Below, in pieces: positions 6,376-62,315 of a stretch of DNA of 64,000 nucleotides (position 1 is the stretch's first letter; each line of letters starts with the position of its first letter). Origin of the DNA: an uncultured Methanosarcinales archaeon (GTDB lineage: Archaea; Nanobdellota; Nanobdellia; Woesearchaeales; DSVV01); contig CAYVNO010000001.1 in assembly GCA_964452935.1 (NCBI GenBank), forward strand, positions 25,537-89,536, read 5' to 3'. The notes beneath the pieces are model-generated. The model was not told where the DNA came from. It was given only the letters and a program-made list of their open reading frames with translations, and made no database searches. The translations under genes were made by a program, and so were the position numbers.

Positions 6376-6376
6376 A

Positions 6377-6396
6377 GTGTTAAGCAAGCTTAACAC
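6377..6396 (+). terminator. Perfect palindromic hairpin immediately after the L12 stop
   Basis: The sequence gtgttaagc-aa-gcttaacac has 9-nt inverted arms and is followed by tttgagcc. Confidence 0.4.
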
Positions 6397-6485
6397 TTTG
6401 AGCCTCCCCATATTTACTGTAACATGGGATTGGCCCGCCCCGACAACTGATTGATCACCTAGCAGAATTGACCAATAAGTGATTT

Positions 6486-6510
6486 GGTGTTTCTAAACAC
6501 CTTTTTTGTT
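6486..6510 (+). terminator. Hairpin plus T-run (intrinsic-terminator-like) at the end of the L1-L10-L12 operon
   Basis: The stem-loop ggtgttt-cta-aacacc is followed by ttttttgtttt. Confidence 0.45.
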
Positions 6511-6524
6511 TTCAACGATAGTAT

Positions 6525-8380: not shown

Positions 8381-8465
8381 CCAAATTCCACTTTGTAGAA
8401 TTTGATTTCCCTCCGGAAAATTGTAAAATTTCACTGCGTAAAATTTTTAATTACGTCTTGAAAAT

Positions 8466-13202: not shown

Positions 13203-13421
13203 ATGGAAAGAAGTAGAAAGGTAGGATTAATACCAAAGGCGCCAGTGGCGAGAATATTAATGAATTCAGGGGCTAAGAGAGTTAGTGCAGATGCTGTGGA
13301 CGCATTTGTTGATGTGTTGATTGATTTAACTGAAAGAATTGCAACACAATCAGCAAAGATTGCAAAGCATTCTGGAAGAAAGACTGTACAAGAAGGAGAT
13401 GTTAAGTTAGCATCTAAGTGA
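13203..13421 (+). CDS. Archaeal histone (HMf-family histone fold)
   Basis: MERSRKVGLIPKAPVARILMNSGAKRVSADAVDAFVDVLIDLTERIATQSAKIAKHSGRKTVQEGDVKLASK aligns along its length with archaeal HMfA/B. Confidence 0.85.
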   Translation: MERSRKVGLIPKAPVARILMNSGAKRVSADAVDAFVDVLIDLTERIATQSAKIAKHSGRKTVQEGDVKLASK

Positions 13422-13776
13422 TGTTTTTGAATGCGTTTGCTTCAAGTTTTGTTTTAGCTTTATGACATTCTTTGCATAATGTTCTTAGGTTTGATTTATT
13501 AAATGGGTTGATTTTCCCTCTTACTGGGATTATATGGTCAATGTCTAATTTAGATTTTCTAAATCTTTTTTTACATATGTTGCATTTGTATTTATCTCTT
13601 CTTAGAATGGCTTTTCTTACGAAATACCAAGAGTGGTCTTCATTGAATGTGTTCATGCACTCTTCTGAGCAGTAGTTTCTTCTAGTTTTTGGAACTATGT
13701 TTTCACAGTTTCTACATATCTTATTTCCGTTTAGGTCTATCTTGTTTTCATAGTCTTTTATTCTTGGAAAGCGCAT
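13414..13776 (-). CDS. HNH endonuclease
   Basis: The motif KYKCNICKK...DIDHIIPVRGKINPFNKSNLRTLCKECHKAK is an HNH motif with zinc-binding Cys pairs. An N-terminal CRNC...CSEEC provides an extra zinc ribbon. Confidence 0.75.
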   Translation of the reverse strand: MRFPRIKDYENKIDLNGNKICRNCENIVPKTRRNYCSEECMNTFNEDHSWYFVRKAILRRDKYKCNICKKRFRKSKLDIDHIIPVRGKINPFNKSNLRTLCKECHKAKTKLEANAFKNIT

Positions 13777-22241: not shown

Positions 22242-25200
22242 TTATTTCTTCTTTGGTTTAATTCCTAGTTTCTTCTCTGTTTTTGCGACCGTTAGTGTTG
22301 TTTTTACAACTGAGTCGGGGTTTAATGACATGGAATGGATGCCTGCTTCAACTAAGAATTCAGCAAATTCTGGGTAATCAGAAGGGGCTTGCCCACAGAT
22401 TCCAATGTACTTGTTCATTTTATTAGCAATATGTATTACTCTTCTAATTAATGTTTTTACGGCTTGGTTTCTTTCTTCATACACATGTGCTACTAATTCA
22501 GAGTCTCTGTCTACACCTAATGTTAGTTGAGTTAGGTCGTTACTTCCTATTGAAAATCCGTCAAAATGTTCTAAGAATTCTTCTGCAAGAATTACGTTAG
22601 ATGGTATTTCACACATTAGGATGATTTTTAAGTTATCTTTTCCTTTTTCTAGTCCATTTTTTTTCATTTCTTTTAGAACTAATAACCCTTCTTCTACTGT
22701 TCTACAGAACGGAATCATTAAGACAATGTTTTTTAGTCCAAACTCTTTCATTACTTTTCTCATTGCCATACATTCTAATGCAAATGCGTCTTTGTATGCA
22801 GGAGAGTAGTATCTTGAAGCACCTCTCCAGCCAATCATTGGGTTGTCTTCAGTTGGTTCGAAATATTTCCCACCAATTAAGTTTGCATATTCGTTTGATT
22901 TAAAGTCTGATAATCTTATAATAACTTTTTTTGGATAGAATGCTGCTGCTAATGTACCTACTCCTTGTGCAAGCTTATCGACAAAGAATTGTGCTTTGTT
23001 TTTGTAGCCTTCTGTTAGTTTGTTGATCTGATTTCTGATTTTATTGTCTGTTACTTTATTGAATTCTAGTAATGCTCTAGGATGTACTTTTATATATGAA
23101 TTTATTATGAATTCTTCTCTTGCAAGGCCAACTCCTGAATTTGGTAAGAAACTGAATTCAAATGCTTCTTCAGGATTACCAATGTTCATCATTATTTCTG
23201 TTCTTGTTTCTGGAATTGATTTAAGGTTTGTTTTATGTATTTTGAATTTGAGTAATTTATCATAGATATAACCAATTTCACCTGAAGAACAGTCTGTTGT
23301 TATCTTTTGTCCTTGTTTTATTAGTTGTGTTCCATTCTCTGTCCCGACAATACATGGTACTCCAAGTTCTCTAGAGATGATTGCTGCATGACAGTTATTT
23401 ACTAATACAGGGGTTAATTTTTCTGTGAATACTGCGTAATTGTGATTATCTGCTACAGTTATGTTGTATACATCACCAAAGCTTTCTTCTTTTAAGTCTA
23501 CCATTCTGTTCATACGTAAGTCACTTTCTAATAACTCTCTTATCTTTTGTGAATTTTCTTTTTTTAGATCTTCTTCTGAGATATACAAATTTTTATCATA
23601 TCTTAATTTAGTCTGACCTCTTACTTCGTCTTTATTGAATATCTGTCTTGTAGAAAAGAATCTGCTTTTTATCACTCTATTTCTTATAACTCCCTTTATT
23701 CTTTTTGTATACTTTAATATCTTATCTAATTTCTCGACAATTTGTACATTGTGGATGTTCCTATTTTTTGTGACTTGAGGTATAATTCCAATTCTAAGAC
23801 AAGCTAACATAGTTCCTTCTAGAAGATTTCGATTTGAGATATAAATATTAATTCTATTATTATAAAATGTTCCGTCCCCATCAATTACTCCTGCTAAAAA
23901 ATTATATGCTACTTCTTCATCGCTTTGAAGAAGGGTAGTTACGATTTGATTTTTTTGTTCATGCATATTGTATGCTATGTCTTTTGAGTATAATCTAAAT
24001 GCCGTTGCTTGCCCTCTGACCTCTTTTCCTCTGATCATTCCGGTAGATATCTTTTTCTCAAAAGGAACAAAACTTTTATTGTATACTGATGTCATACAGT
24101 CTTGCATATGGTTAATGAATCTTTCTTTTTCTGGGATTTGCTTTTGAATAAATTGGACTTCTCCATGAGTTCGTGATCTGTAAATATGTCCATCCGTCAT
24201 TATTCCTCCCAATAAGTATGCTAATCTCTTATCTTTTTCAGTGGTTTGATTAATCATGGGAATATGTTGGGCAATACACACCATTTCTTTGTCGAGAAGC
24301 ATTTGTTTTATTTCTGTATCAACTAATTGTCTGTTTTTAATGTTGATCATTTTGTGATCCGGGGTAATTGTTAATGTGTTGTCCCTTATCTTTCCCCTAA
24401 TAGAAACACTTATCTTTATTTTTTTGGATTTTTTCTTCATGGATGCAATAATTGGTTTCCATTCAATTCTCTTTGTTTGTCTATTCAATGAAGGGGTTAG
24501 TAATCCATTGTATCCTTCTTCATGAACTTGTTGCATTGTCATAAATCCTTTATTTGTTAAAATTTTGGTGTTACCATCAAAACAAGTTCTTCCTCCTCTG
24601 TTTGTAACTATTGCAGAGGCTATTTTCATAATTGGTTCCCAGTCTGGATCAGTCATATCTGTCACTAGGATTTGACCTTTTTTGAAATTATTAATGTCTT
24701 TTACGTCTTTGATTATATTTGCTGGACCTTGTCCTATTTTCATTCCTACAGCTTTTCCTTTTGCAACAATTTTTCCTTTTTGTTGTAATTTGTATTCTTC
24801 TAAAGTGTTTAAGTCTCTTTGACTCTGAACTGTTTCAGGTCTTGCTTGAACTATGAATAATTTTTTTGTTTTTCCATCTTTTGCCCATTCCATATCCATT
24901 GGTTTGAAATAGTTAGCTTTTTCTGAGTAATGGTCTTCTATAATGCATGCCCATTCTGCTAATTTTAGTACTTCTTTATCTTCTAGAACGAATTTCTTTC
25001 TATCTTCTTTGTTTACTGGAATATTTTTTACTGTTTTGTTACCTTCCGAGGCATAAATCATTTTTATTTTCTTTGGACCAACTTTTTTAGAGATTATTGG
25101 TTTGAACCCTTGTTTTAATGTTGGTTTGAAAACATAGTATTCGTCTGGGTTTACTGCTCCTTGTACAACATTTTCTCCTAGACCATATGCTCCTGTTATA

Positions 25201-25880
25201 AAAACAGCATCTTTAAATCCTGTTTCAGTATCAATGGAAAACATAACTCCTGAACATGAGAGGTCTGATCTAACCATCTTTTGAACTCCTATGCTTAGTC
25301 CTATGGAAAAATGGTCGAATTTTTTATCTACTCTGTATGAGATTGCTCTGTTAGTAAATAATGATGCAAAACATTTTTTACATGCGGCAATTAAATCGTG
25401 ATCTCCTTTTATATTTAGATATGTTTCTTGTTGACCTGCAAATGATGCATCTGGTAGGTCTTCAGCAGTGGCTGATGATCTTACAGCGACATCTGTTCTT
25501 TTTCCGTATTCTTTGCATAGCTTTTTGTATGCTTTGATTATTTCTTGTTTTAGATCTTCTGGAAATTCTGCGTTCTTTATTAGCTCTCTTACACGATGTC
25601 CTTTATCTGCTAAGTCTCTCATGTCTTTTGTGTTTAATCCTTTTAGAATATTTTTTACTTCATTCCTTATTCCTGCTTTTTCTAATAGGTGATGGTATGA
25701 ATGTGCTGTGATTGCGAAACCGTTCGGAATATTTACTCCTTTTTTTGTTAGATTTCTATACATCTCTCCTAATGAAGCATTTTTTCCACCAACATGAGGA
25801 ACATCTTCAATACCTAGTTCGTTAAACCATAGAATGAACTCTTTTTCTTTGTTTTTTGGTTTTTTCTTGAATAATGCCAT
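22242..25880 (-). CDS. ppsA: Phosphoenolpyruvate synthase (pyruvate, water dikinase) interrupted by an intein
   Basis: N-terminal GGKNASLGEM...VPNGFAI is the PPDK_N ATP-grasp region. The catalytic motif TNRGGRT|CHAAIISRELGVPCIVGT is split by a 397-aa insert. The C-terminal PEP-utilizing TIM-barrel region is present. Confidence 0.9.
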   Translation of the reverse strand: MALFKKKPKNKEKEFILWFNELGIEDVPHVGGKNASLGEMYRNLTKKGVNIPNGFAITAHSYHHLLEKAGIRNEVKNILKGLNTKDMRDLADKGHRVRELIKNAEFPEDLKQEIIKAYKKLCKEYGKRTDVAVRSSATAEDLPDASFAGQQETYLNIKGDHDLIAACKKCFASLFTNRAISYRVDKKFDHFSIGLSIGVQKMVRSDLSCSGVMFSIDTETGFKDAVFITGAYGLGENVVQGAVNPDEYYVFKPTLKQGFKPIISKKVGPKKIKMIYASEGNKTVKNIPVNKEDRKKFVLEDKEVLKLAEWACIIEDHYSEKANYFKPMDMEWAKDGKTKKLFIVQARPETVQSQRDLNTLEEYKLQQKGKIVAKGKAVGMKIGQGPANIIKDVKDINNFKKGQILVTDMTDPDWEPIMKIASAIVTNRGGRTCFDGNTKILTNKGFMTMQQVHEEGYNGLLTPSLNRQTKRIEWKPIIASMKKKSKKIKISVSIRGKIRDNTLTITPDHKMINIKNRQLVDTEIKQMLLDKEMVCIAQHIPMINQTTEKDKRLAYLLGGIMTDGHIYRSRTHGEVQFIQKQIPEKERFINHMQDCMTSVYNKSFVPFEKKISTGMIRGKEVRGQATAFRLYSKDIAYNMHEQKNQIVTTLLQSDEEVAYNFLAGVIDGDGTFYNNRINIYISNRNLLEGTMLACLRIGIIPQVTKNRNIHNVQIVEKLDKILKYTKRIKGVIRNRVIKSRFFSTRQIFNKDEVRGQTKLRYDKNLYISEEDLKKENSQKIRELLESDLRMNRMVDLKEESFGDVYNITVADNHNYAVFTEKLTPVLVNNCHAAIISRELGVPCIVGTENGTQLIKQGQKITTDCSSGEIGYIYDKLLKFKIHKTNLKSIPETRTEIMMNIGNPEEAFEFSFLPNSGVGLAREEFIINSYIKVHPRALLEFNKVTDNKIRNQINKLTEGYKNKAQFFVDKLAQGVGTLAAAFYPKKVIIRLSDFKSNEYANLIGGKYFEPTEDNPMIGWRGASRYYSPAYKDAFALECMAMRKVMKEFGLKNIVLMIPFCRTVEEGLLVLKEMKKNGLEKGKDNLKIILMCEIPSNVILAEEFLEHFDGFSIGSNDLTQLTLGVDRDSELVAHVYEERNQAVKTLIRRVIHIANKMNKYIGICGQAPSDYPEFAEFLVEAGIHSMSLNPDSVVKTTLTVAKTEKKLGIKPKKK
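23394..24584 (-). mobile_element. Intein (397 aa) with a LAGLIDADG homing-endonuclease domain, inserted at the GGRT/CHAAI catalytic-His motif of PpsA
   Basis: It begins with CFDGNTKILT (Cys1, block A). LAGLIDADG-like YLLGGIMTDGHI and FLAGVIDGDGTF blocks are present. It ends ...VLVNN, followed by the extein Cys (CHAAI). Its in-frame excision restores the canonical PpsA motif. Confidence 0.85.
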
Positions 25881-25930
25881 GTGTTGGTTTATATGTTGGG
25901 GAGTATATAAAGATTTGTTATTATTGTAGA

Positions 25931-26911
25931 ATGGGTATGCAAAGGATTATATATCATTTATGGGTGTTTTGTTGTATGGTGTTTATATTAGAACTTTCAA
26001 AAGAAGATTTAGAATTATCTGTTTATGAGGCGAGGAGATTATTGGGTGTTAAGGGGAAGTTAGTTGAGAATTTATTATTAGTTGAAGATGTTGATGTTGA
26101 TTTGGTTAAAAGGTTGGCGTATGTAAATAATTTATATGAACTTGTTGTTCAATGTGATATGAAGGATTTTGAGAAGAGTTTGAAAGGTTTAGGAAAGTTT
26201 TATGAGAAAAGTTATTGTGTTAGGAAGATTGGTGATGGGTTAAGCGAGAAAGAGATTGGGTCTTTGTTCTGGGATAGGTTAGTTGAGGTCGGTTTGAAAC
26301 CTAAAGTTGACTTGTTTAAACCAAAGACGTTATTTGTTTGCATTTTTTTTAAGAATAATGTTATTGTTGGTAAATTAATATGGGGTAATGAGAAAGAATT
26401 CTTGAATAGGAAAGCTCATAAAAGGCCTGCTTTACATCCGAGTTCGTTAAATCCTAGGTTAGCTAAAGCAATGGTTAATATTTCTGCGAAGAATAACATC
26501 TGTGATCCTTTTTGTGGTTCAGGAGGAATTTTAATAGAGGCAGGGTTAATGGGGTTAAAGGTTGAGGGTTGCGATATCAATAGATTTATGATTAATGCTT
26601 GTGAAAAGAATTTGAAACATTTTGGTGTTAAATGTAAGTTAATGAGAAAGGATGCCCTGAAATTAATTGGTAAATTCGGAGCAATTGTTACTGATTTACC
26701 TTATGCAAAGAATACAAAGAATGTTGATTTGGATAAGTTGTATAAAGAGTTTTTTAAGAATGTTTATAGTTTAACTGATGTTATTGTTGTAGGTTTGCCT
26801 GATTTTGTTTCTTTGAAAGGTTTATTATATAGGTGGAAAGTTAAGAAGAAGTTTGTTTATTATTTGCATAAGAGTTTGAGTAAGGTTATTCTTGTTTTAG
26901 AGAAGAGTTAG
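25931..26911 (+). CDS. THUMP-domain tRNA (guanine-N2)-methyltransferase, Trm11/Trm14-like
   Basis: RPALHPSSLNPRLAKAMVNIS...DPFCGSGGILIEAGLMG is the SAM-binding motif of Trm11-type MTases. The ORF-track start at 25874 would overlap ppsA, so a later start near 25931-25976 is more likely. Confidence 0.6.
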   Translation: MGMQRIIYHLWVFCCMVFILELSKEDLELSVYEARRLLGVKGKLVENLLLVEDVDVDLVKRLAYVNNLYELVVQCDMKDFEKSLKGLGKFYEKSYCVRKIGDGLSEKEIGSLFWDRLVEVGLKPKVDLFKPKTLFVCIFFKNNVIVGKLIWGNEKEFLNRKAHKRPALHPSSLNPRLAKAMVNISAKNNICDPFCGSGGILIEAGLMGLKVEGCDINRFMINACEKNLKHFGVKCKLMRKDALKLIGKFGAIVTDLPYAKNTKNVDLDKLYKEFFKNVYSLTDVIVVGLPDFVSLKGLLYRWKVKKKFVYYLHKSLSKVILVLEKS

Positions 26912-28105: not shown

Positions 28106-29161
28106 ATGCCAAGAAGATATGGAACAGGAGACGGAATAAGAGGAAGAGGAGGAAGATTTAGTGGAGATTTTTCTAGTAGAGGCGGTACTCAAGCAAGATT
28201 AGAAGAGCTTGCAGATAGGACTACGGCTGCACATAATCCTAGAAATAAGTCTAGACAGGTTCCTGAACCAATCACTGTTCATGAGTATGGTGGAATTGGA
28301 GAGCTTAGGGAATTAACTAAGAATGATTGTTATCCTGTTTATAATCATGTAGTTAAACAAGGTCTTCAACCTAGTAATGCTCTTGGAAGGGCTGTTACAT
28401 GTTTTATGGTTAATATGTTTTTGAATTTGCCAGGAGATGATTATTCTAGAAGAAGATATTCAAATAATGATAGAAGGGCTATGAGAGAACAGTTTGATAT
28501 TTTCCGTGAGGGTTTAATGGGGTTAGAGATTCTTTTTGGAGAAAGAAGTAATCTAGGTATTGGCGGATTTAAGAAAATTACTAATTGGTATGAACATGTT
28601 GATTATTTGGTTGAGAATGTAGATCTTTATTCAGTGTCTAGATCTGATATTGTTTATGTTAATGTTCCTCCTCAGGGACGTTTTTCAAATAGAGAGGAGA
28701 AAGCGCTTGAGGCAGTGTTTACAGGGTATAGAGATGAACAAGAACCTCATTTAAGAGTTCTCAAAGAAAATGCTAGTGAGGCGTTACTTCAACTTATGTT
28801 GAATCCAGAATTAAATGATCTTGAATCATATATTGATTCTATTGGTGAATATGATTTTAGTAATGAAAATGGAGGAGTAGAGGAAGCTGTTGATGCGATT
28901 ACCCCTCTTTTGAGATTATTTGATCAAATGGAGAAAGGGCAAGAACTTACAGCTGTTGAAGATTTCAAGGAGAGATATGGGGCAATGTTGCAAAAATATC
29001 CTGATCAACAAGGTTTAATATCATTGATGTCACAGGCGGTTGCTGAGGACGGTGTGTTAATAACTGAAGGAGCAGATGTAACAGAGATTCCTAACTTTAG
29101 GTTAGTTATGAGTTACAGAGATTGCTGTATGTATCAAAGAGTTAATCCAACTTCTCAATAA
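28106..29161 (+). CDS. Hypothetical protein with an N-terminal RGG/Gly-Arg-rich box
   Basis: The N-terminus MPRRYGTGDGIRGRGGRFSGDFSSRGGTQ is an RGG-type low-complexity region. The rest of the protein has no recognised motif, and the gene is higher in GC. Confidence 0.4.
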   Translation: MPRRYGTGDGIRGRGGRFSGDFSSRGGTQARLEELADRTTAAHNPRNKSRQVPEPITVHEYGGIGELRELTKNDCYPVYNHVVKQGLQPSNALGRAVTCFMVNMFLNLPGDDYSRRRYSNNDRRAMREQFDIFREGLMGLEILFGERSNLGIGGFKKITNWYEHVDYLVENVDLYSVSRSDIVYVNVPPQGRFSNREEKALEAVFTGYRDEQEPHLRVLKENASEALLQLMLNPELNDLESYIDSIGEYDFSNENGGVEEAVDAITPLLRLFDQMEKGQELTAVEDFKERYGAMLQKYPDQQGLISLMSQAVAEDGVLITEGADVTEIPNFRLVMSYRDCCMYQRVNPTSQ

Positions 29162-30878
29162 ATTTCTTAGTTGTTTCTAAAGCCATGTCAACTTCTTCTC
29201 GAGTTGGTTTGTGGAATGCTCTTAAGAATTTGTTTCTCATTGTGTGTATTTTCCTGATTTCTTCGTCATGCGGAAGATCTTTTTCTTGGCCTAGTATATT
29301 TGCTAGTCTATTGAAGTCAAGGTTTTTATCTTCTTCTCCAAATCTCTTTTTGTATTGTTCTTTTAGAGCGTAGTAGATAGCTAGATCGCAGTTAACTAGA
29401 ACGCTGCCTGAGTTTAACAATCCTTTTGCGTCCTCTTCTGTCTGTCCTGTTTTCTGACTTAGGATTGCAGCAGTTAATGCTGTTGGGTTTAGTTCAGTTG
29501 TTTCTTCTTCTGTATCCTCTTCTTCTGAAGTGTCTTGGTTGAATAATGATAGTAATTCGTTTGTGTTTTCTGGAAGGTTTACTTTTATCTCTTGTTTTGG
29601 TTCAGTTACTGGTGCTTCTTCAGCTGTAACTGGTTCTTGTGTTTGTTCTAGTTGTTCTGTTGTTTCTTCTTCTGCTTCTATTGGTTGTACTTCTTGTGTT
29701 TCTTCAGCTTGAATTGATTCTTGTTCTTTTGTTTCTATTATTGGTTGTTCTGTAGATTCTTCTGCTGTTAATGGTTGTTCTTCTTTTACTTCCAACTCTT
29801 CTTTTTCATCCCAATAATCAATTATTGGTGTTTCTTCGGTTGTTGATTCTTGTTTTTCTTCAACAGCTGTTTCCTCTTTGACTTCTTCTTCAACTTGTTC
29901 AACCTTTTCTTCATCCATGCCTAGAATATCTTGTGATTGTAGAACATAATATTGGTCATTTGATATTGCGAACTCTATAAATTGAGGTCTTCCGAATAAT
30001 CTCTCTATTCTTTTGCAATGTAATGCAATATCCATTATCTGTCTTTCATTTAATTTTTGTTCTGCAGCTTTTTTTGGCGGAATAATTGATTTTTTTGTTT
30101 TGAATTTATATTTATCTAATTCAAAAAGGAAATCTTGTTTTTTTATGTCTGTATCATCTATGGCTAGTGTATCTTTGTTTAGTGTGTATCTGTCAGGCAT
30201 TATGTTCCCGCTTGTTATTGCACATCCTAATCCTTTGCATGCAACAATTAGTATTTGTTCATGATTTGTTGGGTTTGTAGAATATGCTGCTCCAGATAGG
30301 TGAGAGTTGACCATGTTTTGGACTATTACAGCCATTGATGAATCTTGAATATTATTTTTCATTCTGTGTTCAATAGCTTTTGCTGTATAGAATGATGCCC
30401 AACATGCTTGTAGTGCATTTAATAATCTTTTATTTCCTTCAATGTTTAGGAAGTTTAGGTGCATCTTTGAGTAATCTTCATACCCACATGTGCTAGCTCT
30501 AACTGCTACTAATGGTCCTTTCTTTGAGTTAAGCATCTGGTTTAATTTAGTTGTATCTTCAATTAGACAGTTATAGTTTTCTAGAATTTCTTCTTGTATT
30601 GGATCTGGAAGTATTCCATTTACAATTAATTTTTGGATACCATTAGCAACATTTTGTAGGTTTTCTTTGTCTTCAAGTTTTATAGAAGATAATAAATTTC
30701 TTATTCTTATGTCTATTCCAGTATGTTTTAAGAATTTATCAAATGATTGTTTTTTAATAACAAATCCAATAGGTACTGAGAATCTATTGCATAAGGCTGC
30801 TAACCTTACTGACTTTTCCCCGACTTCGTGTATGTCATCCTTTGTTATATTTTTGAGCATTAATAAACTACTTTGCAT
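29142..30878 (-). CDS. Stand-alone PEP-synthase/PPDK N-terminal (ATP-grasp nucleotide-binding) domain protein with a long acidic E/T/Q-rich linker and a small C-terminal helical domain
   Basis: N-terminal VGEKSVRLAALCN...VPIGFVI...VAVRASTCGYEDYS parallels PpsA GGKNASLGEM...VPNGFAI...VAVRSSATAEDLP. The swivel-His and PEP-binding domains are absent. There is a ~170-aa acidic low-complexity middle and a C-terminal ...EEIRKIHTMRNKFLRAFH segment. Confidence 0.5.
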   Translation of the reverse strand: MQSSLLMLKNITKDDIHEVGEKSVRLAALCNRFSVPIGFVIKKQSFDKFLKHTGIDIRIRNLLSSIKLEDKENLQNVANGIQKLIVNGILPDPIQEEILENYNCLIEDTTKLNQMLNSKKGPLVAVRASTCGYEDYSKMHLNFLNIEGNKRLLNALQACWASFYTAKAIEHRMKNNIQDSSMAVIVQNMVNSHLSGAAYSTNPTNHEQILIVACKGLGCAITSGNIMPDRYTLNKDTLAIDDTDIKKQDFLFELDKYKFKTKKSIIPPKKAAEQKLNERQIMDIALHCKRIERLFGRPQFIEFAISNDQYYVLQSQDILGMDEEKVEQVEEEVKEETAVEEKQESTTEETPIIDYWDEKEELEVKEEQPLTAEESTEQPIIETKEQESIQAEETQEVQPIEAEEETTEQLEQTQEPVTAEEAPVTEPKQEIKVNLPENTNELLSLFNQDTSEEEDTEEETTELNPTALTAAILSQKTGQTEEDAKGLLNSGSVLVNCDLAIYYALKEQYKKRFGEEDKNLDFNRLANILGQEKDLPHDEEIRKIHTMRNKFLRAFHKPTREEVDMALETTKKFIEKLD

Positions 30879-32253: not shown

Positions 32254-32874
32254 ATGATAGGATACTTTTATATCCTAATGACAAATAAAAATATAATACA
32301 ATGGATTGTGAAGAATGAAGATTTAGTAGTGCCAACTTTATTTAAACCAGTGCAATTTAGGATTATTAAGAAGCTTTCAAAGAATAAAAAGTTAACAGAG
32401 AATGAAAAAAGATATTTAAGAGGTAAGATGAAAGATAAGTTTAATGTTTTGCAGGAGTTAATGAAGGTTAATGTAATGAGAGATGAATTTAGAGTATTAG
32501 TTGATAATATTGGATCCTATTATGTGACTGGTTTAGAGGCTTTAAAACATAATGGTTATGGTTGGTATTTTGAACCAAAGATTGTGGAAGTAATAAATAC
32601 TAAGATTGAGGGAAGGTTTGTTGTTAATAATAAAACTGTTAAATTTATAAGAGTTAAATCAATATCAAAAAGTAAAACAAAGATTGATAAAAAATCCGGG
32701 ATTATATATGCAACAAATGAGCAAATATTAAAAGATATAGTATTCACTAAAAACAATTATACAGAATCTGTTTGGATGCAGATGTTTTCAAGATATGGGA
32801 TGATGTTTGCAAAAGGATTTAAGGAGTTATTGTCTAAAAAGAGCAAAATTAATTATGCACTTTATGGGGTTTGA
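32254..32874 (+). CDS. AbiEi-like antitoxin (type IV TA / abortive infection AbiE system)
   Basis: YYVTGLEALKHNGYGWY resembles the conserved AbiEi wHTH region. The gene overlaps the downstream AbiEii gene by 4 nt (ATGA). The start may be at 32281. Confidence 0.5.
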   Translation: MIGYFYILMTNKNIIQWIVKNEDLVVPTLFKPVQFRIIKKLSKNKKLTENEKRYLRGKMKDKFNVLQELMKVNVMRDEFRVLVDNIGSYYVTGLEALKHNGYGWYFEPKIVEVINTKIEGRFVVNNKTVKFIRVKSISKSKTKIDKKSGIIYATNEQILKDIVFTKNNYTESVWMQMFSRYGMMFAKGFKELLSKKSKINYALYGV

Positions 32875-33572
32875 GAATGACAAAGATTTTGGATGTTTTA
32901 AGAAAGTTTCTTAAAGAGGTGGAAAATGATAATCCATTTAATTTAGTTTTAAAAGGAGGAACTGCTTTAGCTATTTATTATTTGAATGATCATAGGGAAT
33001 CTGAGGATCTGGACTTTGATGTTGATAAGTCGTTGATTAAAAAACATGAAGAGATAATTGGTTATTTTGTTAATGTTTTGGGAATTTTAAAACAAAAACA
33101 AATTATCAATAATTTCAGGATAACAAAACAGGGTTTTGCTTCTACAGACAGATACCACATTAAACTTGAGATTGAGACATATAAAACCTTTTATACAAAA
33201 ATTGATGTGGACTTTGTTGATTTACCAAAGAAGTTAGTCAATAAAGATAATCTTTTCCTATATTCCTCTGAAAGAATCTTTGTTACAAAGGCCATCACTT
33301 TTATTAGTAGAAAAGAGTTCAAGGATTTATATGATTTGTTCTATTTGGTTGGGAAGATTGATGTTAGGAAGTTTAAGAATAAAGAGAATGTTGTTAAATT
33401 GATTGAGGAAGTAATAGCAGTTGCTAATGAAGAGGATATTCTTAAGCTTTATAGATCTGCTTTTAGAAATGTCGATATGAAATTTAAGAATTTAAAAGAG
33501 TCGCAGTTGGATTCTTTTCTTAGGACAATTATAAGGAAACTTAGGGTTTTGATAAATAAATTGAAGAAATGA
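32871..33572 (+). CDS. AbiEii/AbiGii-family nucleotidyltransferase toxin (DUF1814)
   Basis: LKGGTALAIYYLNDHRESEDLDFDV matches the GGTAL ... R-x-S-x-D-x-D nucleotidyltransferase signature of AbiEii. Confidence 0.7.
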   Translation: MRMTKILDVLRKFLKEVENDNPFNLVLKGGTALAIYYLNDHRESEDLDFDVDKSLIKKHEEIIGYFVNVLGILKQKQIINNFRITKQGFASTDRYHIKLEIETYKTFYTKIDVDFVDLPKKLVNKDNLFLYSSERIFVTKAITFISRKEFKDLYDLFYLVGKIDVRKFKNKENVVKLIEEVIAVANEEDILKLYRSAFRNVDMKFKNLKESQLDSFLRTIIRKLRVLINKLKK

Positions 33573-35161: not shown

Positions 35162-35292
35162 TAGTCGTAAGGGAATAATTCCTCTTTAAATATCTATCGG
35201 TTGGGAATATTCCTATCGGAATATTTTATTCAAGAAGTGTTTAAAAGGAGGTGTGAGTTTTTGTAGTAAATCATACTTGGAGGTTGATTATA

Positions 35293-36504
35293 ATGAAACA
35301 AAGTAAGTATTTTTTTACATCAGAGAGTGTATCTGCTGGACATCCTGATAAGTTATGCGATCATATTAGTGACGCTGTTTTGGATGCAATATATACAAAA
35401 GATCCTAATGCTAGGGTTGCTGTTGAATGTTTAACAAAGACAGGATTTGTTGTTGTTGCTGGGGAGGTAACTACGACTGCATGGGTAGATATCCAGAATA
35501 TTACAAGGAATACAATCAAAGAGATTGGTTATGATAAGCCAGAGTATGGTTTTGATGGGAACACATGTGGTGTTTTAGTATCATTATCTGAACAGAGTCC
35601 TGATATTTCTCAAGGGGTTACTGAAGGAGAAGGTGCATTCAAAGAACAAGGTGCAGGAGATCAAGGCTTGATGTTTGGTTATGCAACAAATGAGACACCT
35701 GAATTTATGCCACTACCAATTATCATGGCACATAAGTTATTGAAAGAGCTTGATAGAATTAGGAGGGCTAATGAGTTAACTTATCTAAGGCCGGATGCAA
35801 AGTCTCAAGTAACTGTTGAATATGAGAATGGGGAAGCAAAAAGGATTGATGCTGTTGTTATTTCAACACAACATGATCCGGATGCAACACATGAACAAAT
35901 CATGTCGGATGTAGTTGAAAAGGTTATAAAACCTGTTTGTGGTCAATGGTTAGATGAGAATACAAAGTTCTTTGTTAATCCAACTGGAAAATTTGTAGTT
36001 GGTGGACCTGTAGCAGATGCAGGTTTAACAGGAAGAAAAATCATTGTTGATACATATGGTGGACATGGAAGTCACGGTGGTGGATGTTTTTCAGGGAAAG
36101 ATCCTTCGAAAGTGGATAGGTCTGCTGCTTATATGGGTAGGTATATTGCAAAGAATATTGTTGCTTCAGGTTTAGCAGATAAGTGTGAAGTACAGCTTGC
36201 ATATGCAATTGGTGTTGCAGAACCTGTTTCTGTTCTAACACATTGCTTTGATACGAATAAAGTTCCAGAAGAAAAGATCTCAGAGTTAGTTAGGAAACAT
36301 TTCCCTCTAACACCTGCTGCGATAATTAATCATCTGAATCTTAGAAGACCAATCTATAAGAAAACAGCAGCATATGGTCATTTTGGAAGAGATGATCCTG
36401 ACTTTACATGGGAAAAGACAGATAAGGCAGATGTTTTGAAGCAGGATGCCGGTTCTTTGGGTGAACCAGAGAAATCTGGAGATCAAGTACCTTTAGATGC
36501 ATAA
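35293..36504 (+). CDS. metK: S-adenosylmethionine synthetase, bacterial/eukaryotic MetK type (not archaeal MAT)
   Basis: [40 protein letters not shown] and the rest of the three-domain MetK signature are present. The start is taken at MKQSKYFF. Confidence 0.9.
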
Positions 36505-44389: not shown

Positions 44390-44653
44390 TTATTCACCAG
44401 ATTTTTCTTTTTTTGCAACTACTTTTTTTGTCTTCTTTTTGCTAATTGTGTAAGCTTTTGCTGTAAACTTTGAGTCGCACTTGGAACAGTTCCAGATTCC
44501 TGCAGCCAATCTTTTTATTCCATTTATTTTGTTACAATAAGGACATTTATGTTTTTTCTTTTGTTCTTTTTCAACTATTTCTAACTTGTTTCTAATTCTT
44601 CTACCATATCTTGATCCAAATCTTTTTGTTGATCCTAATCTTTTCTTTGCCAT
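44390..44653 (-). CDS. rpl37ae: 50S ribosomal protein L37ae (eL43)
   Basis: MAKKRLGSTKRFGSRYGRRIRNKLEIVEKEQKKKHKCPYCNKINGIKRLAAGIWNCSKCDSKFTAKAYTI. The ORF-track N-terminal extension is read-through across the tRNA. The true start at 44653 has an AAGGTGA SD. Confidence 0.85.
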   Translation of the reverse strand: MAKKRLGSTKRFGSRYGRRIRNKLEIVEKEQKKKHKCPYCNKINGIKRLAAGIWNCSKCDSKFTAKAYTISKKKTKKVVAKKEKSGE

Positions 44654-44681
44654 TTGATTCACCTTATGATTCCGTATAATA

Positions 44682-44778
44682 TGGGGCTGCCCGGACATTC
44701 GTTGCTTTTTAAGCGATTTCGAACCGGGGTTACCTGGTCCCAAACCAGGAAGGATAGACCAAACTACCCTACAGCCCC
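44682..44778 (-). tRNA. tRNA-Pro (anticodon UGG) carrying a ~22-nt non-canonical insertion (intron) in the T-loop
   Basis: Manual fold gives acceptor GGGGCTG/CAGCCCC (7 bp), U8A9 and a D-arm GGGT-AGTTTGGTCT-ATCC. The anticodon stem is CCTGG/CCAGG with loop TTTGGGA (anticodon TGG, G37). The T-stem is CCCGG/CCGGG. The T-loop is 29 nt (TTCGAAATCGCTTAAAAAGCAACGAATGT) instead of 7. Removing ~22 nt between the repeated CGAA yields a canonical TTCGAAT. The gene is GC-rich against an AT-rich background. Confidence 0.7.
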
Positions 44779-44864
44779 TTTGTAGTATTGGAGTCATTAG
44801 TGATGCTATTTAAAGCTTTCTCTTTATTTGTATATATAATTGCTTTATAAACCCCTTTTTGGGC

Positions 44865-49756: not shown

Positions 49757-49771
49757 GTGATTACTTTCTGT

Positions 49772-50686
49772 ATGAAACGGAAACTAATCAAACAGGGTGG
49801 TGGTGGGGTCACATTCTATGTGCCAAAGAAATGGGTTGATAAACAAGGCTTGAAACCTGGTGATGAGATTGATGTAATTGAGGAAGATGATAAATTAATT
49901 GTTCTAAATGAAGCGATGACTCAGAATAAGACTGTTGAGATTGATATTAAGGGTATGGATCATACAGCTCTTTTGAAAACAGTTATCTCTTATTATGAGA
50001 TGGGTTATTCTGAGATTACTATTATTTCAGATAATGGAATGGTTTATATTCCAACTTTATTAAAAGAAAAGAAGATAACAGTAAAAGAAGAGGTTGAAAG
50101 ATTAGTAAATAGGCTTATTGGTTTTGAGTTGATTAGTTTTGAGTCAAATAAATATGTTTTGAAAGATATTGCTATGACTTCTCCTACTGAGTTTGATAAT
50201 GTTCTAAGGAGAATCTTTTATTTATTATTAGAATTTCAAAATTATGTAAAAGAGACAGTTGATAATAAGAATAAAGTCAAAGATTATAATGAACATCATG
50301 ATAGTATTGCTAAGTTTATTAGTTTTTGTATTAGGTTATTGAATTTAAGTATGGATAAAACTAATGTTGAGAAGAATAATTTACATACAATACTAACATT
50401 GTTGGATAAGTATACTGATGCGTTAAGATGGCTATTATACGATTACACTGCTAGTGGAATAAAAGATAAAAAATCAATCTTTGCTATAATGGATCATTTT
50501 AGAATGTATTATAATTTATTTTATAATTATGATATAAAATTAATAAATGAGTTAGATAGAGAAAGAATTAAGTTAAGAAAAACATTGAAATCAGATGAAG
50601 CAGTTATTCACTTTTCTTCTGTTTTAGAATATATCATGGCAATGATTAGACCAACTATTTGTTTAGTTGAGAGTTCCAAGTCTTAA
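49772..50686 (+). CDS. Transcriptional regulator with an N-terminal AbrB/SpoVT swapped-hairpin domain and a PhoU-like helical C-domain
   Basis: MKRKLIKQGGGGVTFYVPKKWVDKQGLKPGDEIDVIEEDDKLIVL is a typical AbrB/MazE-type domain. The C-terminal ~220 aa are helical and PhoU-like. Confidence 0.5.
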   Translation: MKRKLIKQGGGGVTFYVPKKWVDKQGLKPGDEIDVIEEDDKLIVLNEAMTQNKTVEIDIKGMDHTALLKTVISYYEMGYSEITIISDNGMVYIPTLLKEKKITVKEEVERLVNRLIGFELISFESNKYVLKDIAMTSPTEFDNVLRRIFYLLLEFQNYVKETVDNKNKVKDYNEHHDSIAKFISFCIRLLNLSMDKTNVEKNNLHTILTLLDKYTDALRWLLYDYTASGIKDKKSIFAIMDHFRMYYNLFYNYDIKLINELDRERIKLRKTLKSDEAVIHFSSVLEYIMAMIRPTICLVESSKS

Positions 50687-52852: not shown

Positions 52853-52986
52853 TCTTTTTCCTCGAATAGTTTTTTTAATGCAAACTCAATTGCGTGTGAT
52901 TTGTTTCTGAAAACACCGGAACGCATGCTATCTTGAATCTTTACAACAATTTCTTCGTCCACTGTTATGCTTAGTTTGTGTTTCAT
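52849..52986 (-). CDS. Ribbon-helix-helix (CopG/Arc-like) small DNA-binding protein, 45 aa
   Basis: This ORF was not in the track. MKHKLSITVDEEIVVKIQDSMRSGVFRNKSHAIEFALKKLFEEKE has a beta-strand followed by two helices. It overlaps both neighbours by ATGA. It is a paralog of the ORF at 55318-55455. Confidence 0.6.
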   Translation of the reverse strand: MKHKLSITVDEEIVVKIQDSMRSGVFRNKSHAIEFALKKLFEEKE

Positions 52987-53909
52987 CTTGGTTGATTCTC
53001 CCTGTAATTATCTCTTTCAGCTCTTGCTTTCATTTGTGGTGTTTGTAATTGTATTTCTAGATTGGAATAATCTTCTGAGGATTTTTTAATTATTATGCCT
53101 TGGAATCCATTCGGTTTTGGGAATGTTATTAAGTCACGTACATCATCAACAGAATAATCATAAATACATCTCATTAAGTATAAACAATGTCCTGCTGTTT
53201 CGGCAGTTATTCTTATACCATTTATATCTCCAATATCATTTACACTTCTCAATGAAGGATTTCTTTGAATCCATGCATAAACACTTTCTGGTGTTTTTAC
53301 TCTAGTTTCTATATCTATTACTTTGTCTCTTTTATGCCTCTCTTTTAAGAATTGCCTCCATTTCTCAAGCTCTTCTGGATCAAGACTATTCTCTTCTATA
53401 TGTTTGAGAATTTCTTCATATAATTTTGGGTCTTGTTCTATAATTTCTTTTCTTGTGAGATATCTTTTCGGCTTAAACTCTTGGAATCCTAATTGTTCTA
53501 CTGTTTCTTCTAGTTCTGGCATTTCTTCGCCAATAAAAAATGCTCTTCTATTATTTAGGTAGTGAGGAATATATAGTTCTAGGTCGTGCTGTTGTGTACC
53601 TGTAAATCGTGGTCTTCCTTCTTCAAAATCAACATAGTAGAACATTGTTCTATTGTCTTCTCCTTGTTCTACTATGTATCCCACTCCAGTATGATTAACC
53701 TTTTTTACACGGTACATTGTTAGGTGATGTCCTACTGTACCAATGTTTAGTGCGACAACTTTTCCTTGTAATGAAGATTGAATTCCTTCATATTTTTCTA
53801 CTCTTCTAAATCCTAGTTCATGGAGGGCTCTACGACTGTTTCTAATTCTTTGTTTAACACTGTCACTCATTGCTCTTCTCATTATTTTATTGTGTAGTGG
53901 TTCTGTCAT
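52983..53909 (-). CDS. RelA/SpoT-like (RSH synthetase-fold) nucleotidyltransferase, small-alarmone-synthetase-like
   Basis: C-terminal SVNDIGDINGIRITAETAGHCLYLMRCIYDY...DLITFPKPNGFQGIIIKK...LEIQLQTPQM aligns with the RelP/RelQ synthetase core (D..G.R....; PK.NGYQSLH; VEIQIRT). Consensus Y (to F) and R (to Q) positions are substituted. Confidence 0.6.
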   Translation of the reverse strand: MTEPLHNKIMRRAMSDSVKQRIRNSRRALHELGFRRVEKYEGIQSSLQGKVVALNIGTVGHHLTMYRVKKVNHTGVGYIVEQGEDNRTMFYYVDFEEGRPRFTGTQQHDLELYIPHYLNNRRAFFIGEEMPELEETVEQLGFQEFKPKRYLTRKEIIEQDPKLYEEILKHIEENSLDPEELEKWRQFLKERHKRDKVIDIETRVKTPESVYAWIQRNPSLRSVNDIGDINGIRITAETAGHCLYLMRCIYDYSVDDVRDLITFPKPNGFQGIIIKKSSEDYSNLEIQLQTPQMKARAERDNYRENQPR

Positions 53910-54055: not shown

Positions 54056-55057
54056 ATGGTATATATTTACAAGAAAACAATACATGGAAAGAACTATTAT
54101 TATCTTAGGGTATCTAAGAGGGTTAATGGTAAATTAGTGGTTAAAGATGTTGCTTATTTGGGTAATGATATATCTAAGATTGAAAGTAAGTTAAATAATT
54201 TAGTGGAGTATAAGGATGAGATAAGAAAAGGTCATAGAATCATAAAGAAATTTATACAATCAAATTATTTCTTACAGAAAGTAAAAAAATTGAAATTAAA
54301 GAATATTAATTATTTAGATAAAGGAATGTTAGAACAGGTTGAGGCTATAAAATTACATTATAAAAATAATTTTTTAAAATTAGATGAATTAACAAAGAAA
54401 GAGGTCTATAAACATTTTTTAATTGATTTTGCTTTTAATACAACCTCCATAGAAGGTAATACAATCACTCTAGATGAAGCAAATAAACTTTTGAATGAAG
54501 ATATTTTACCAAAAAATAAAACTCTTAGAGAAGTTTATGATTTGCAGAATACTGAAAACACTTTTTTATGGCTTTTAGACGACAAACCTTTGTTTAATGA
54601 AATGTTAATCACTGATATTCATGATAGATTGCTAGAGAAAATTGATGTAAGAAAAGGCTATAGGACTCAAGATATTAAAGTTTTCAAGTCAAAATTTGAG
54701 GCTTCTCCTGTTAAATACTTAAAGATTGATATGAGGGTTTTAATGAAGTGGTTTAAAGATAATAAAAAGTTACATCCTCTTGTTTTAGTTGGATTATTGC
54801 ATCATAAGTTAGAGAAGATACATCCGTTTGCAGATGGAAACGGAAGAACAGGGAGAATGTTGATGAATTATATTTTAATGAAAATGGGTTTTCCTCCTTT
54901 AATTATATCTAAAAAAAGAAGATCAGATTATTTGGCTGCTTTAAGGAATGCAGATAATTGTGATTTAAATGATAATGATTCTAGTTATTATAAAAAGTTG
55001 ATAACTTATTTAGCTGAGGAGATGGTTTCTTCTTATTGGTCTAATTTTAATGTTTAA
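54056..55057 (+). CDS. fic: Fic/Doc family protein (putative AMPylase)
   Basis: HPFADGNGRTGR matches the canonical Fic motif HPFx[DE]GNGRxxR. Confidence 0.9.
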   Translation: MVYIYKKTIHGKNYYYLRVSKRVNGKLVVKDVAYLGNDISKIESKLNNLVEYKDEIRKGHRIIKKFIQSNYFLQKVKKLKLKNINYLDKGMLEQVEAIKLHYKNNFLKLDELTKKEVYKHFLIDFAFNTTSIEGNTITLDEANKLLNEDILPKNKTLREVYDLQNTENTFLWLLDDKPLFNEMLITDIHDRLLEKIDVRKGYRTQDIKVFKSKFEASPVKYLKIDMRVLMKWFKDNKKLHPLVLVGLLHHKLEKIHPFADGNGRTGRMLMNYILMKMGFPPLIISKKRRSDYLAALRNADNCDLNDNDSSYYKKLITYLAEEMVSSYWSNFNV

Positions 55058-60629: not shown

Positions 60630-62315
60630 ATGGATCAAAAATCAAATAAATATTTCAAAGAGCTAATGAAAGAGTTAGGTAGAAAGAAATACACTAAACA
60701 TACTCTTAATACACTTAAGATGAAACTCTGTGAGAAACATAAATTAAAGAATATTCCAACTGATATCCAGATTCTTTTGAATGTTGATAAAAAGAAATTA
60801 AATAAATTCAATCTTAAACTATTGCAGACTAAACCTACAAGGTCTATTTCAGGTGTTGCTGTCTGTGCAGTTATGAGTTTTCCGTATAAATGTCCTCATG
60901 GTGAGTGTAGGATGTGTCCTTCAAATACTTCAAAAGGTATTCCACAGAGTTATACTGGGAAAGAGCCGGCATCAATGAGGGCAATTAGGAATAAATTTGA
61001 TTCTTACTTGCAGGTTTTTAATAGATTAGAGCAATATGTTGTTATGGGGCATAATTTTGATAAGATTGAGTTAATTATTATGGGCGGTACATTCCCAAGT
61101 TTTCCAAAAAAATATCAAGAGAATTTTGTAATGAATGCGTTCAAAGCTATGAATGATTTTGGAAAATTATTTTTTGTAAATAATGAGTTTAATGTTTCTA
61201 AATTTAAGAAATTCTTTGAATTGCCTGGTGAAGTTGGTAGTGAGAAGAGAGTTAAGTCTATTCATAAGAAGATTTTGAAATTAAAAGGTAAGTCTACTTT
61301 AGAGAAAGAACAGAGAATGAATGAGAAGTCAATGGTTAGATGTGTTGGTATGACTCAGGAGACTAGACCGGATTATGGGATGTTAAAACATGCAAATGAG
61401 ATGTTAAGATTAGGTTGTACTAGAGTTGAATTAGGTGTACAAACGGTTTATAACGAAGTTTTAGAGAGGATTGAGAGAGGACATAGTGTTGAAGACAGTA
61501 TTAATTCTATAAGGATTCTAAAAGATTTAGGTTTTAAGATAAATTATCATGTAATGCCTGGTTTGCCTGATGTTGATAAGAAAAAAGATATTGAAGGATT
61601 AAAGAAATTATTTACTGATCAAAGATTTAGACCAGATATGTTAAAAATATACCCTTGTATGGTTTTAAAAAATACTAAATTATTTAGAGATTGGAAGAAA
61701 GGTAAGTTTGATCCGTTAACAACAAAGAAAGCTGCCGAGTTAGTTGCAGAGTTTAAGAAATATGTTCCAGAGTATGTAAGAATAATGAGGGTTCAAAGAG
61801 ATATTCCTACTTATATGACAGAAGCAGGAGTTGATAAAACAAATTTAAGACAGTATGTTGATAAGTTGAAACCAAAATGTAAATGTATTAGGTGTAGGGA
61901 GATTGGTAGATTTATTGGAAAAAAGAATTTTAAACTAGGGAAAATTAGTGTGAATATTAAAGAGTATAAGGCAAGCGATGGAAAAGAGTTTTTTATTTCT
62001 GCAGATGATAAGAATATGTTGTTGGGTTTTTGTAGATTAAGATTTCCTTCACAGTTACTTAGAAAGGAAATAACGAAGAAAACTGCCTTAGTTAGGGAGT
62101 TGCATATTTATTCTCCCGCGGTTAATATTGGTGAGAAATCTAAGGATTCATTTCAACATAAAGGACTTGGAAAGAAATTATTGAAAAAAGCTGAAGAAAT
62201 TGCTAAAAAGAATGGAAAGAAGAAAATAGTTATTATTTCTGGTGTTGGAGCTAGGGATTATTATAGAAAATTAGGTTATAAAAATCAAGGGCCTTATATG
62301 GTAAAGAAACTGTAA
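60630..62315 (+). CDS. elp3: Elongator complex protein 3 homolog (radical SAM + GNAT tRNA-modifying enzyme)
   Basis: CAVMSFPYKCPHGECRMC is the radical SAM cluster. The C-terminal GNAT is marked by QHKGLGKKLLKKAEEIA. Confidence 0.85.
   Translation: MDQKSNKYFKELMKELGRKKYTKHTLNTLKMKLCEKHKLKNIPTDIQILLNVDKKKLNKFNLKLLQTKPTRSISGVAVCAVMSFPYKCPHGECRMCPSNTSKGIPQSYTGKEPASMRAIRNKFDSYLQVFNRLEQYVVMGHNFDKIELIIMGGTFPSFPKKYQENFVMNAFKAMNDFGKLFFVNNEFNVSKFKKFFELPGEVGSEKRVKSIHKKILKLKGKSTLEKEQRMNEKSMVRCVGMTQETRPDYGMLKHANEMLRLGCTRVELGVQTVYNEVLERIERGHSVEDSINSIRILKDLGFKINYHVMPGLPDVDKKKDIEGLKKLFTDQRFRPDMLKIYPCMVLKNTKLFRDWKKGKFDPLTTKKAAELVAEFKKYVPEYVRIMRVQRDIPTYMTEAGVDKTNLRQYVDKLKPKCKCIRCREIGRFIGKKNFKLGKISVNIKEYKASDGKEFFISADDKNMLLGFCRLRFPSQLLRKEITKKTALVRELHIYSPAVNIGEKSKDSFQHKGLGKKLLKKAEEIAKKNGKKKIVIISGVGARDYYRKLGYKNQGPYMVKKL

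Follow-up and report, generated by a model that had tools for sequence, protein, structure and literature searches.

An interrupted tRNA-Pro(UGG) gene

The whole stretch of DNA analysed here, which we call the window, comprises 64,000 nucleotides of contig CAYVNO010000001.1 (assembly GCA_964452935.1), and all coordinates count from its first letter. On its minus strand, directly upstream of the gene for ribosomal protein L37ae (rpl37ae), lies a 97-nt segment that we read, with high confidence, as a functional tRNA-Pro(UGG) gene carrying a bulge-helix-bulge (BHB) type intron at position 59/60 in its T-loop, from which a mature tRNA would arise by splicing. Judged by its sequence, the host appears to be an AT-rich, DPANN-type archaeon, with Woesearchaeota and Pacearchaeota as its nearest labelled relatives. 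The gene and its parts are as follows.

44778..44682, minus strand: pre-tRNA-Pro(UGG) gene, 97 nt, with G1 at 44778 and the discriminator A73 at 44682 (from the sequence, ARAGORN after intron removal, and covariation).
44718..44778, minus strand: 5' exon, 61 nt, tRNA positions 1-59, ending ...CCCGG TTCGAA (placed by BHB geometry and by two intron-less orthologues, loci L007 and L009).
44717..44696, minus strand: intron AUCGCUUAAAAAGCAACGAAUG, 22 nt, at position 59/60; its deletion restores TTCGAAT, and homologues carry inserts at the same point.
44682..44695, minus strand: 3' exon, 14 nt, consisting of U60, CCGGG, the acceptor 3' strand CAGCCCC and A73.
44742..44740, minus strand: anticodon UGG, followed by G37 (Rfam alignment, ARAGORN).
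44724..44728, minus strand: T-stem 5' strand CCCGG (positions 49-53), part of the outer BHB helix h (pair probabilities 0.65-0.96).
44690..44694, minus strand: T-stem 3' strand CCGGG (positions 61-65), part of the outer BHB helix h (pair probabilities).

The reverse complement of 44682..44778 begins GGGGCTG TA GGGT AGTTTGGTCTA TCCT T CCTGG TTTGGGA CCAGG TAAC CCCGG and continues TTCGAA[ATCGCTTAAAAAGCAACGAATG]T CCGGG CAGCCCC A, where ATCGCTTAAAAAGCAACGAATG is the insert; CCA is not encoded, and the unspliced T-loop measures 29 nt. The exons are intact and every stem pairs: the acceptor stem has 7 bp, the D, anticodon and T arms are all present, and the anticodon loop of 7 nt carries U33, UGG and G37. 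Once the insert is taken out, the T-loop reads TTCGAAT between CCCGG and CCGGG, which fits U54 U55 C56 R57 A58 closed by G53-C61 and equals the loop of the intron-less orthologue L007. With 56% GC, the segment forms an island in a genome of 33% GC, and the 97-mer folds at -43.2 kcal/mol (z = -3.84), an energy equalled by none of 200 shuffles. The same gene, intron included, is present identically in two independent JGI assemblies (L001 and L002) that were located via the 87-aa L37ae; JGI samples 3300009374 and 3300009405 contain the organism.

The D arm adopts the standard register, with G10.U25, G11-C24, G12-C23 and U13.U22, followed by A21 and a single U26. Across 18 distinct homologues this register shows zero broken pairs at 10:25, 11:24 and 12:23; pair 11:24 is GC in 13 and UA in 5, and pair 12:23 is GC in 16 and CG in 2. 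The first-pass annotation had counted 2 nt between the D and anticodon stems, a count that came from a wrong D-stem register whose pairs break in 5, 3 and 3 of the 18 sequences. When spliced, these 18 homologues are 96% paired over the cloverleaf, and no shuffle out of 500 matches their covariation score; compensatory changes on both sides are found at three anticodon-stem pairs and two D-stem pairs. ARAGORN calls tRNA-Pro(tgg) for all 20 spliced homologues submitted to it (20/20).

Standard tools miss the unspliced gene. ARAGORN, with or without the anticodon-loop intron option, reports zero tRNAs in the whole window, and with lowered thresholds it yields spurious calls only, such as a "tRNA-Arg" spanning the insert and 14 meaningless predictions whose "introns" run to kilobases. 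Similarly, Rfam finds zero tRNAs over the whole window at either the gathering score or E<=5. A search limited to 351 nt did produce a partial match of 19 bits to the Rfam tRNA model; it takes in the 5' strand of the acceptor together with the D and anticodon arms but skips the T arm. Since the match surfaced only in this short search, other disrupted tRNAs would also escape a whole-window E-value search. Cutting 19-24 nt from the 29-nt T-loop is enough to produce an ARAGORN tRNA-Pro(tgg) call, and when the 22 nt that follow TTCGAA are removed, the call is the same and the product, 75 nt long, has TTCGAAT as its loop. The earlier proposal of a tRNA-Pro(UGG) with a T-loop insertion of about 22 nt is thus borne out, as deleting exactly 44696..44717 restores both the loop and the call; ARAGORN, one of the tools suggested for checking it, is silent on the unspliced gene and positive once the 22 nt are removed. 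A generic scan for a T arm combined with a 59/60 BHB returned one match over both strands of the window; outside the window, it matched only tRNA-Pro genes of the loci that we fetched.

The splice motif in the T-loop

The predicted motif comprises the following elements, in which a slash within a sequence marks a junction.

44720..44723, minus strand: central helix H, exon strand U54 U55 C56 G57, pairing with 44698..44701.
44698..44701, minus strand: central helix H, intron strand CGAA (intron positions -6 to -3), with register-specific pairing in relatives.
44717..44719, minus strand: 5' splice-site bulge B1, A58 A59/A; predicted cleavage after A59, from the BHB rule (PMC4090602) applied to the fold.
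44695..44697, minus strand: 3' splice-site bulge B2, U G/U60, a 3-nt bulge between H and the T stem in the minimum free energy (MFE) fold; predicted cleavage before U60.
44704..44714, minus strand: weak inner stem h', GCUU AAA AAGC, in the MFE fold; its core folds at -2.0 kcal/mol versus -0.1 for shuffles.

A BHB is a 4-bp helix between two 3-nt bulges that hold the splice sites, and in the canonical case its central helix includes the first two bases of the anticodon (PMC4090602). From this placement we derive that cleavage follows the second nucleotide of the bulge; applied to the fold, the rule puts the intron at 44717..44696, position 59/60. In the unconstrained MFE fold of the 97-mer, the acceptor stem and anticodon arm form alongside the T stem, H and the 3' bulge of 3 nt, and the pairs of H have probabilities of 0.69-0.75 in the full precursor. 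The first-pass annotation had expected a relaxed BHB and pointed to 44696-44717 as the place to look; this interval coincides with the intron, and the unconstrained fold contains the motif, with the T stem as the outer helix and UUCG/CGAA as the central one. As modelled, the window copy is of the relaxed kind (hBH), with a strict 3' half and a relaxed 5' half.

We infer cleavage, ligation and their order from this geometry. In the precursor, U54-G57 and the intron CGAA would lengthen the T stem by a 4-bp helix. The 3' splice site would be offered by the 3-nt bulge UG/U60 on the 3' strand, and the 5' splice site by A58 A59/A in a bulge or internal loop closed by the weak intron stem alone. The archaeal splicing endonuclease (EndA) would cut past the second nucleotide of each bulge, and an RtcB-type ligase would join the exons into a 75-nt tRNA with the T-loop UUCGAAU and the exon-exon junction ...GGUUCGAA/UCCGG..., to which CCA would be added later. 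With U54-G57 sequestered in the precursor, the elbow between T-loop and D-loop would form only after splicing.

Conservation among relatives and alternative explanations

Two features that flank the tRNA gene entered the comparison with relatives.

44390..44653, minus strand: rpl37ae, 87 aa, beginning 28 nt past A73 and preceded by GGTGA (JGI calls, Pfam).
44807..44814, minus strand: TATA-like box TTTAAATA, starting 36 nt upstream of G1; a candidate archaeal promoter element.

A genome scan based on L37ae returned eight relatives, labelled as Woesearchaeota, Pacearchaeota, "uncultured Methanosarcinales" and, in one case, Nitrososphaera; the "Methanosarcinales" labels on several related metagenome-assembled genomes (MAGs) look unreliable and were left unused. 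The closest genomes carry Woesearchaeota or Pacearchaeota labels, in keeping with the DPANN-like host suggested at first pass, and the 28-nt spacing given there between the tRNA and rpl37ae is correct. In six of the eight relatives, tRNA-Pro(UGG) lies directly upstream of rpl37ae. Within this unbiased, protein-found set, four loci contain a T-loop insert (20 nt in L003, 125 nt in L004, 14 nt in L005 and 123 nt in L008), and the remaining two syntenic orthologues lack it, L007 reading TTCGAAT and L009 TTCAAAT, which fixes the junction. Rfam scores these two intron-less genes at 35.6 and 60.2 bits and leaves the interrupted ones unrecognised.

A wider set came from a metagenome search with a pattern that held the anticodon loop, the T arm and the 3' acceptor strand fixed and required a gap of 8-38 nt. 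It returned 29 loci, in 27 of which rpl37ae follows the tRNA gene, with 44-70% L37ae identity to the window protein; synteny at such identities indicates orthologous loci from a fairly deep clade. The gap between tRNA-Pro and rpl37ae measures 14-90 nt in most loci and up to 305 nt in two, and the arrangement is kept down to 44% identity. Most homologues also have similar TTTAWAWA boxes, starting at about -32 to -41.

Together with the loci found through L37ae, the pattern loci provide 30 distinct intron-bearing genes. Their inserts, 13-125 nt long, all enter at the same point and are unalignable except for a YGAA-NN signature before U60. At intron positions -5 to -3, G occurs in 30, A in 28 and A in 29 of the 30, position -6 is C in 16, U in 11 and A in 3, and the T preceding CCGGG is invariant (30/30). 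With this shared point and YGAA-NN-T signature, and with intron-less orthologues reading TTCGAAT or TTCAAAT, the earlier designation as a non-canonical intron stands. In the BHB register, H pairs completely in 26 of the 30 distinct genes, as against 17 of 824 (2.1%) other registers, and in three protein-found loci the loop UUCA is accompanied by intron UGAA, a change from G57-C to A57-U. The hBH arrangement of T stem, H and 3' bulge appears in the MFE fold of 21 of the 30 genes. The intron interiors fold at a summed -202.7 kcal/mol, compared with -90.5 +/- 9.4 kcal/mol for shuffles, none of 300 shuffles being as low. Clean 3-nt bulges and a textbook hBHBh' are found in L003, L025, L027 and L039, and introns of 13-15 nt have no h'.

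Several observations weigh against a spliced intron in a functional gene. In the window copy h' is weak, and the 5' site sits in a 5x2 internal loop instead of a clean 3-nt bulge; a strict 3-nt 5' bulge would require a lone U-A pair plus a C.A mismatch. Pfam scans, which covered the roughly 58 open reading frames (ORFs) of the window, gave no match to EndA (tRNA_int_endo) or RtcB among them. The metagenome pattern demanded an insert and a fixed T arm, so the conservation of those segments is partly by construction, and as it admitted no intron-less genes, the proportion of intron-bearing genes among its loci carries no meaning. Covariation within the BHB core (H) falls short of significance, as 66 of 500 shuffles attain its score; its exon strand is near-invariant and was fixed by the pattern. 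Because the exon strand hardly varies, the case for H is carried by register-specific complementarity and conservation, not by covariation.

Rejection by standard finders and the weak inner helix would suit a pseudogene, that is, a tRNA-Pro disabled by the 22-nt T-loop insertion and never processed to a working tRNA. A dead gene would not be expected to keep its synteny at 44-70% L37ae identity. The insert preserves the exact BHB register, as do 26 of 30 distinct relatives, although its interior turns over freely; the exons are intact with each stem paired, and a TATA-like box stands at the usual distance. A pseudogene is accordingly improbable. The placement of the junction deserves separate consideration, since a real intron at 58/59 or 60/61, leaving UUCGAGU or UUCGAAA, is compatible with the ARAGORN tRNA-Pro calls obtained when 22 nt are removed at adjacent offsets, and the A run at the 5' junction makes the sequence alone ambiguous. 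The BHB geometry (PMC4090602; cleavage position derived from the canonical 37/38 case) selects A59/A and G/U60, and both the invariant T before CCGGG and the TTCGAAT/TTCAAAT loops of the intron-less orthologues agree with it, which makes a shifted junction very improbable.

Retention of the insert, giving a mature tRNA with an enlarged 29-nt T-loop or an extra hairpin, strikes us as extremely improbable. A length range of 13-125 nt and a sequence that is free outside the BHB core form the pattern of a removed spacer and not of a functional part of a tRNA, and insert-free orthologues have the canonical 7-nt loop. As follows from established tRNA structure, U54-G57 would remain sequestered if the insert stayed, and the conserved elbow contacts would be blocked. 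Finally, the region might hold no RNA gene at all, being instead an N-terminal extension of L37ae or a chance tRNA look-alike; a mechanical 135-aa ORF (44390..44797) does cross it in frame with L37ae. The first-pass annotation spoke of an annotated ORF reading through the tRNA, which is not supported: the JGI protein call is the 87-aa form, which stays clear of the tRNA, and what crosses it is the mechanical ORF. The tblastn alignments of relatives start at residues 1-11 of the 87-aa form, which places them 14-90 nt past the tRNA in the majority of loci and as far as 305 nt past it at two. Along with the GC island and the strong cloverleaf covariation, this reduces the protein-extension and look-alike explanations to practically nothing, and we retain the spliced 59/60 intron in a functional tRNA-Pro(UGG) gene.

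Some relatives show further inserts in the same gene. An apparent additional acceptor-stem insert near position 3/4 is seen in L003 (~2370-2420), L007 (~2300-2345) and L034 (~8440-8470), with readings of GGG/...CATGAA/GCTG and GGG/ATTGTAT...CATCAA/GCTA. The L007 insert fits a motif with a central helix formed by the leader and G1 (GATG/CATC) and a 10-bp inner stem, and Rfam aligns L007 from model position 4 onward only; an attempt to find a BHB motif for the L003 insert did not resolve. Extra D-loop inserts are present in L005/L017/L035, L014, L020, L023, L028, L030 and L031, that of L020 reading GGTAGCTTGG[AGCACACGCGAGCAAC]CATCC, and L004 has a 37/38 insert, TTTGGG/TTGTTAAAACACAAGAA/ACCAGA. 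With these D-loop and 37/38 inserts, single tRNA-Pro genes of the clade hold two or three introns.

The T-loop introns of L004 (2325-2449) and L008 (104-226), each about 125 nt long with several strong hairpins, both start with ACAGCT and have a box C-like (RUGAUGA) end, G(T)TGATGAAAG. The interiors of the two fold far better than shuffles, at -40.0 kcal/mol (shuffles, -24.2) and -38.2 kcal/mol (shuffles, -21.6), respectively, and these introns could contain a small RNA or a miniature element that has inserted there. In L009, a Pacearchaeota MAG with an intron-less tRNA-Pro, a 34-nt exact repeat occupies 2269-2302 and, 117 nt downstream, 2386-2419. It joins the final 11 nt of the tRNA to 23 nt of the 3' flank, has 100% identity, and looks like an attachment-site duplication or a rearranged remnant of a 3' half.

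Genomic surroundings, known systems and implications

Downstream on the same strand the gene order is rpl37ae, rpoP, pcc1, prefoldin beta, UPF0147 and VKOR; a leucine-rich-repeat (LRR) protein and aRF1 are encoded upstream of tRNA-Pro. There is no T-run between tRNA-Pro and rpl37ae in the window, so co-transcription is possible, and the two genes may share a transcript.

Elsewhere in the window, 22245..25880 (minus strand) encodes a 1212-aa PPDK/PEP-synthase-like ORF with an intein lying between its PPDK_N and PEP-utilizers domains, recognised by Intein_splicing and LAGLIDADG_3 matches at residues ~448-817; a second ORF at 29145..30878 (minus strand) has the PPDK_N domain only. A Bro-N domain protein (11721..12494, minus strand) and an HNH endonuclease (13417..13776, minus strand), both of mobile-element or virus-like type, flank a small ORF at 13205..13420 (plus strand) that, by eye, reads as archaeal histone-like. 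Toxin-antitoxin or defence-type domains occur at 32871..33569 (plus strand), 49757..50683 (plus strand), 52986..53909 (minus strand) and 54056..55054 (plus strand), the set comprising an AbiEii nucleotidyltransferase, a MazE-like domain, a RelA_SpoT-domain protein and a Fic/DOC protein, and a stretch of ORFs without a Pfam match extends over ~46.7-52.9 kb. Three plus-strand genes encode an S-adenosylmethionine synthetase (35284..36501), an Elp3-like protein (60630..62312) and a UPF0020-type methyltransferase (25874..26908). The synthetase matches the three S-AdoMet_synt domains of Pfam in an otherwise archaeal context, and by our reading belongs to the MetK-type family; the Elp3-like radical-SAM/GNAT protein possibly serves tRNA wobble modification.

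A scan of GC-rich islands for other hidden RNAs left only ORFs and two intergenic stretches, 13205..13420 and 6376..6524. The latter, on the plus strand, is a locally GC-rich stretch of 150 nt between the ribosomal P1 gene and a DUF7121 gene, with two hairpins, one of 9 bp immediately past the stop codon and another with a T-run after it; it has no Rfam match (best 16.5 bits), and its fold z-score of only -1.6 is unremarkable.

Both position 59/60 and intron-rich DPANN tRNA genes are already in the literature. The 59/60 site is listed among the known non-canonical archaeal tRNA intron positions, non-canonical BHB introns are richest in Crenarchaeota and Nanoarchaeota, and tRNA-Pro(UGG) of Pyrobaculum islandicum has introns at 25/26, 37/38 and 56/57 (PMC4090602). 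The window intron resembles those of Crenarchaeota and Thermoproteales in being a short BHB-type element outside the anticodon loop, with a BHB or relaxed hBH motif to which exon sequence contributes, although splicing here is predicted. It also resembles the Thermoproteales in that one isoacceptor holds several introns, relatives of the window adding inserts near 3/4, in the D-loop and at 37/38. Unlike those hyperthermophilic crenarchaea, the host has a mesophilic-looking, 33% GC genome of DPANN type; its intron lies at 59/60, with the T stem as the outer helix and the T-loop UUCG in the central helix, and its site is clade-wide at one syntenic locus, whereas in Thermoproteales similar intron sequences are reported to be scattered over many tRNAs.

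The disrupted tRNAs of other DPANN archaea, such as ARMAN-2/Micrarchaeum with an epsilon2 EndA and Nanoarchaeum (PMC5829648, PMC3239211), come from the same superphylum, judged by the L37ae relatives, and likewise have multiple, non-canonical introns that defeat standard prediction. Kaneta et al. predicted tRNAs for one Pacearchaeota and one Woesearchaeota genome, and reported raised levels of tRNA gene disruption in multiple DPANN lineages whose alpha4 EndA has an "L3" loop (PMC5829648). In contrast to the present single-locus description, these surveys give counts and enzyme types (PMC5829648, PMC3239211), and in the DPANN tRNA-disruption literature accessible in full text we found no description of a tRNA-Pro 59/60 intron or of its linkage to rpl37ae.

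The canonical archaeal 37/38 intron, a strict hBHBh', shares the 4-bp central helix, the two 3-nt bulges and, presumably, processing by EndA and RtcB; it differs in that here the site is in the T-loop, the T stem replaces the anticodon stem as outer helix, and the 5' site of the window copy is relaxed. Nucleomorph and Cyanidioschyzon merolae T-arm introns (PMC4090602, PMC3728597) are also inserts in the T-psi-C arm of an otherwise normal tRNA, but they are eukaryotic, nuclear or nucleomorph, and some are only 3 nt long, whereas the context of the window is archaeal (L37ae, RpoP, Pcc1, aRF1 and CDP-archaeol synthase).

The finding therefore extends a known phenomenon and reveals no new one; what it adds is a site common to a clade at one syntenic locus and relatives that stack further inserts in the same gene. 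With 30 distinct introns of 13-125 nt at one orthologous site, together with intron-less alleles, the locus offers a natural series for the minimal requirements of DPANN splicing endonucleases, one in which the 3' hBH half is retained and the 5' half is relaxed.

It is conceivable, although we hold it to be unlikely, that the 59/60 intron is an old, clade-wide fixture of the tRNA-Pro/rpl37ae-rpoP-pcc1 locus in Woesearchaeota- and Pacearchaeota-like DPANN archaea that was kept by selection rather than by drift. The intron might break the T-arm/3'-end segment that serves integrating elements as an attachment site, and in the intron-less L009 allele the 34-nt att-like duplication covers exactly this segment. 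Alternatively, it might make T-loop formation, and hence the maturation of a transcript shared with the ribosomal-protein operon, dependent on splicing. If this were true, tRNA-Pro, with the inserts near 3/4, in the D-loop and at 37/38 in relatives, would be a hotspot of gene disruption.

The practical point concerns annotation, as ARAGORN and Rfam (at its curated gathering threshold) overlook a probably essential tRNA-Pro(UGG) gene. Training of the tRNAscan-SE 2.0 models for BHB introns drew on Crenarchaeota, Euryarchaeota and Thaumarchaeota (PMC8450103), and Kaneta et al. reported incomplete tRNA sets in some DPANN and Asgard genomes, pointing to undetected disrupted genes (PMC5829648). Genes hidden in the way described here can make DPANN genomes appear short of tRNAs.

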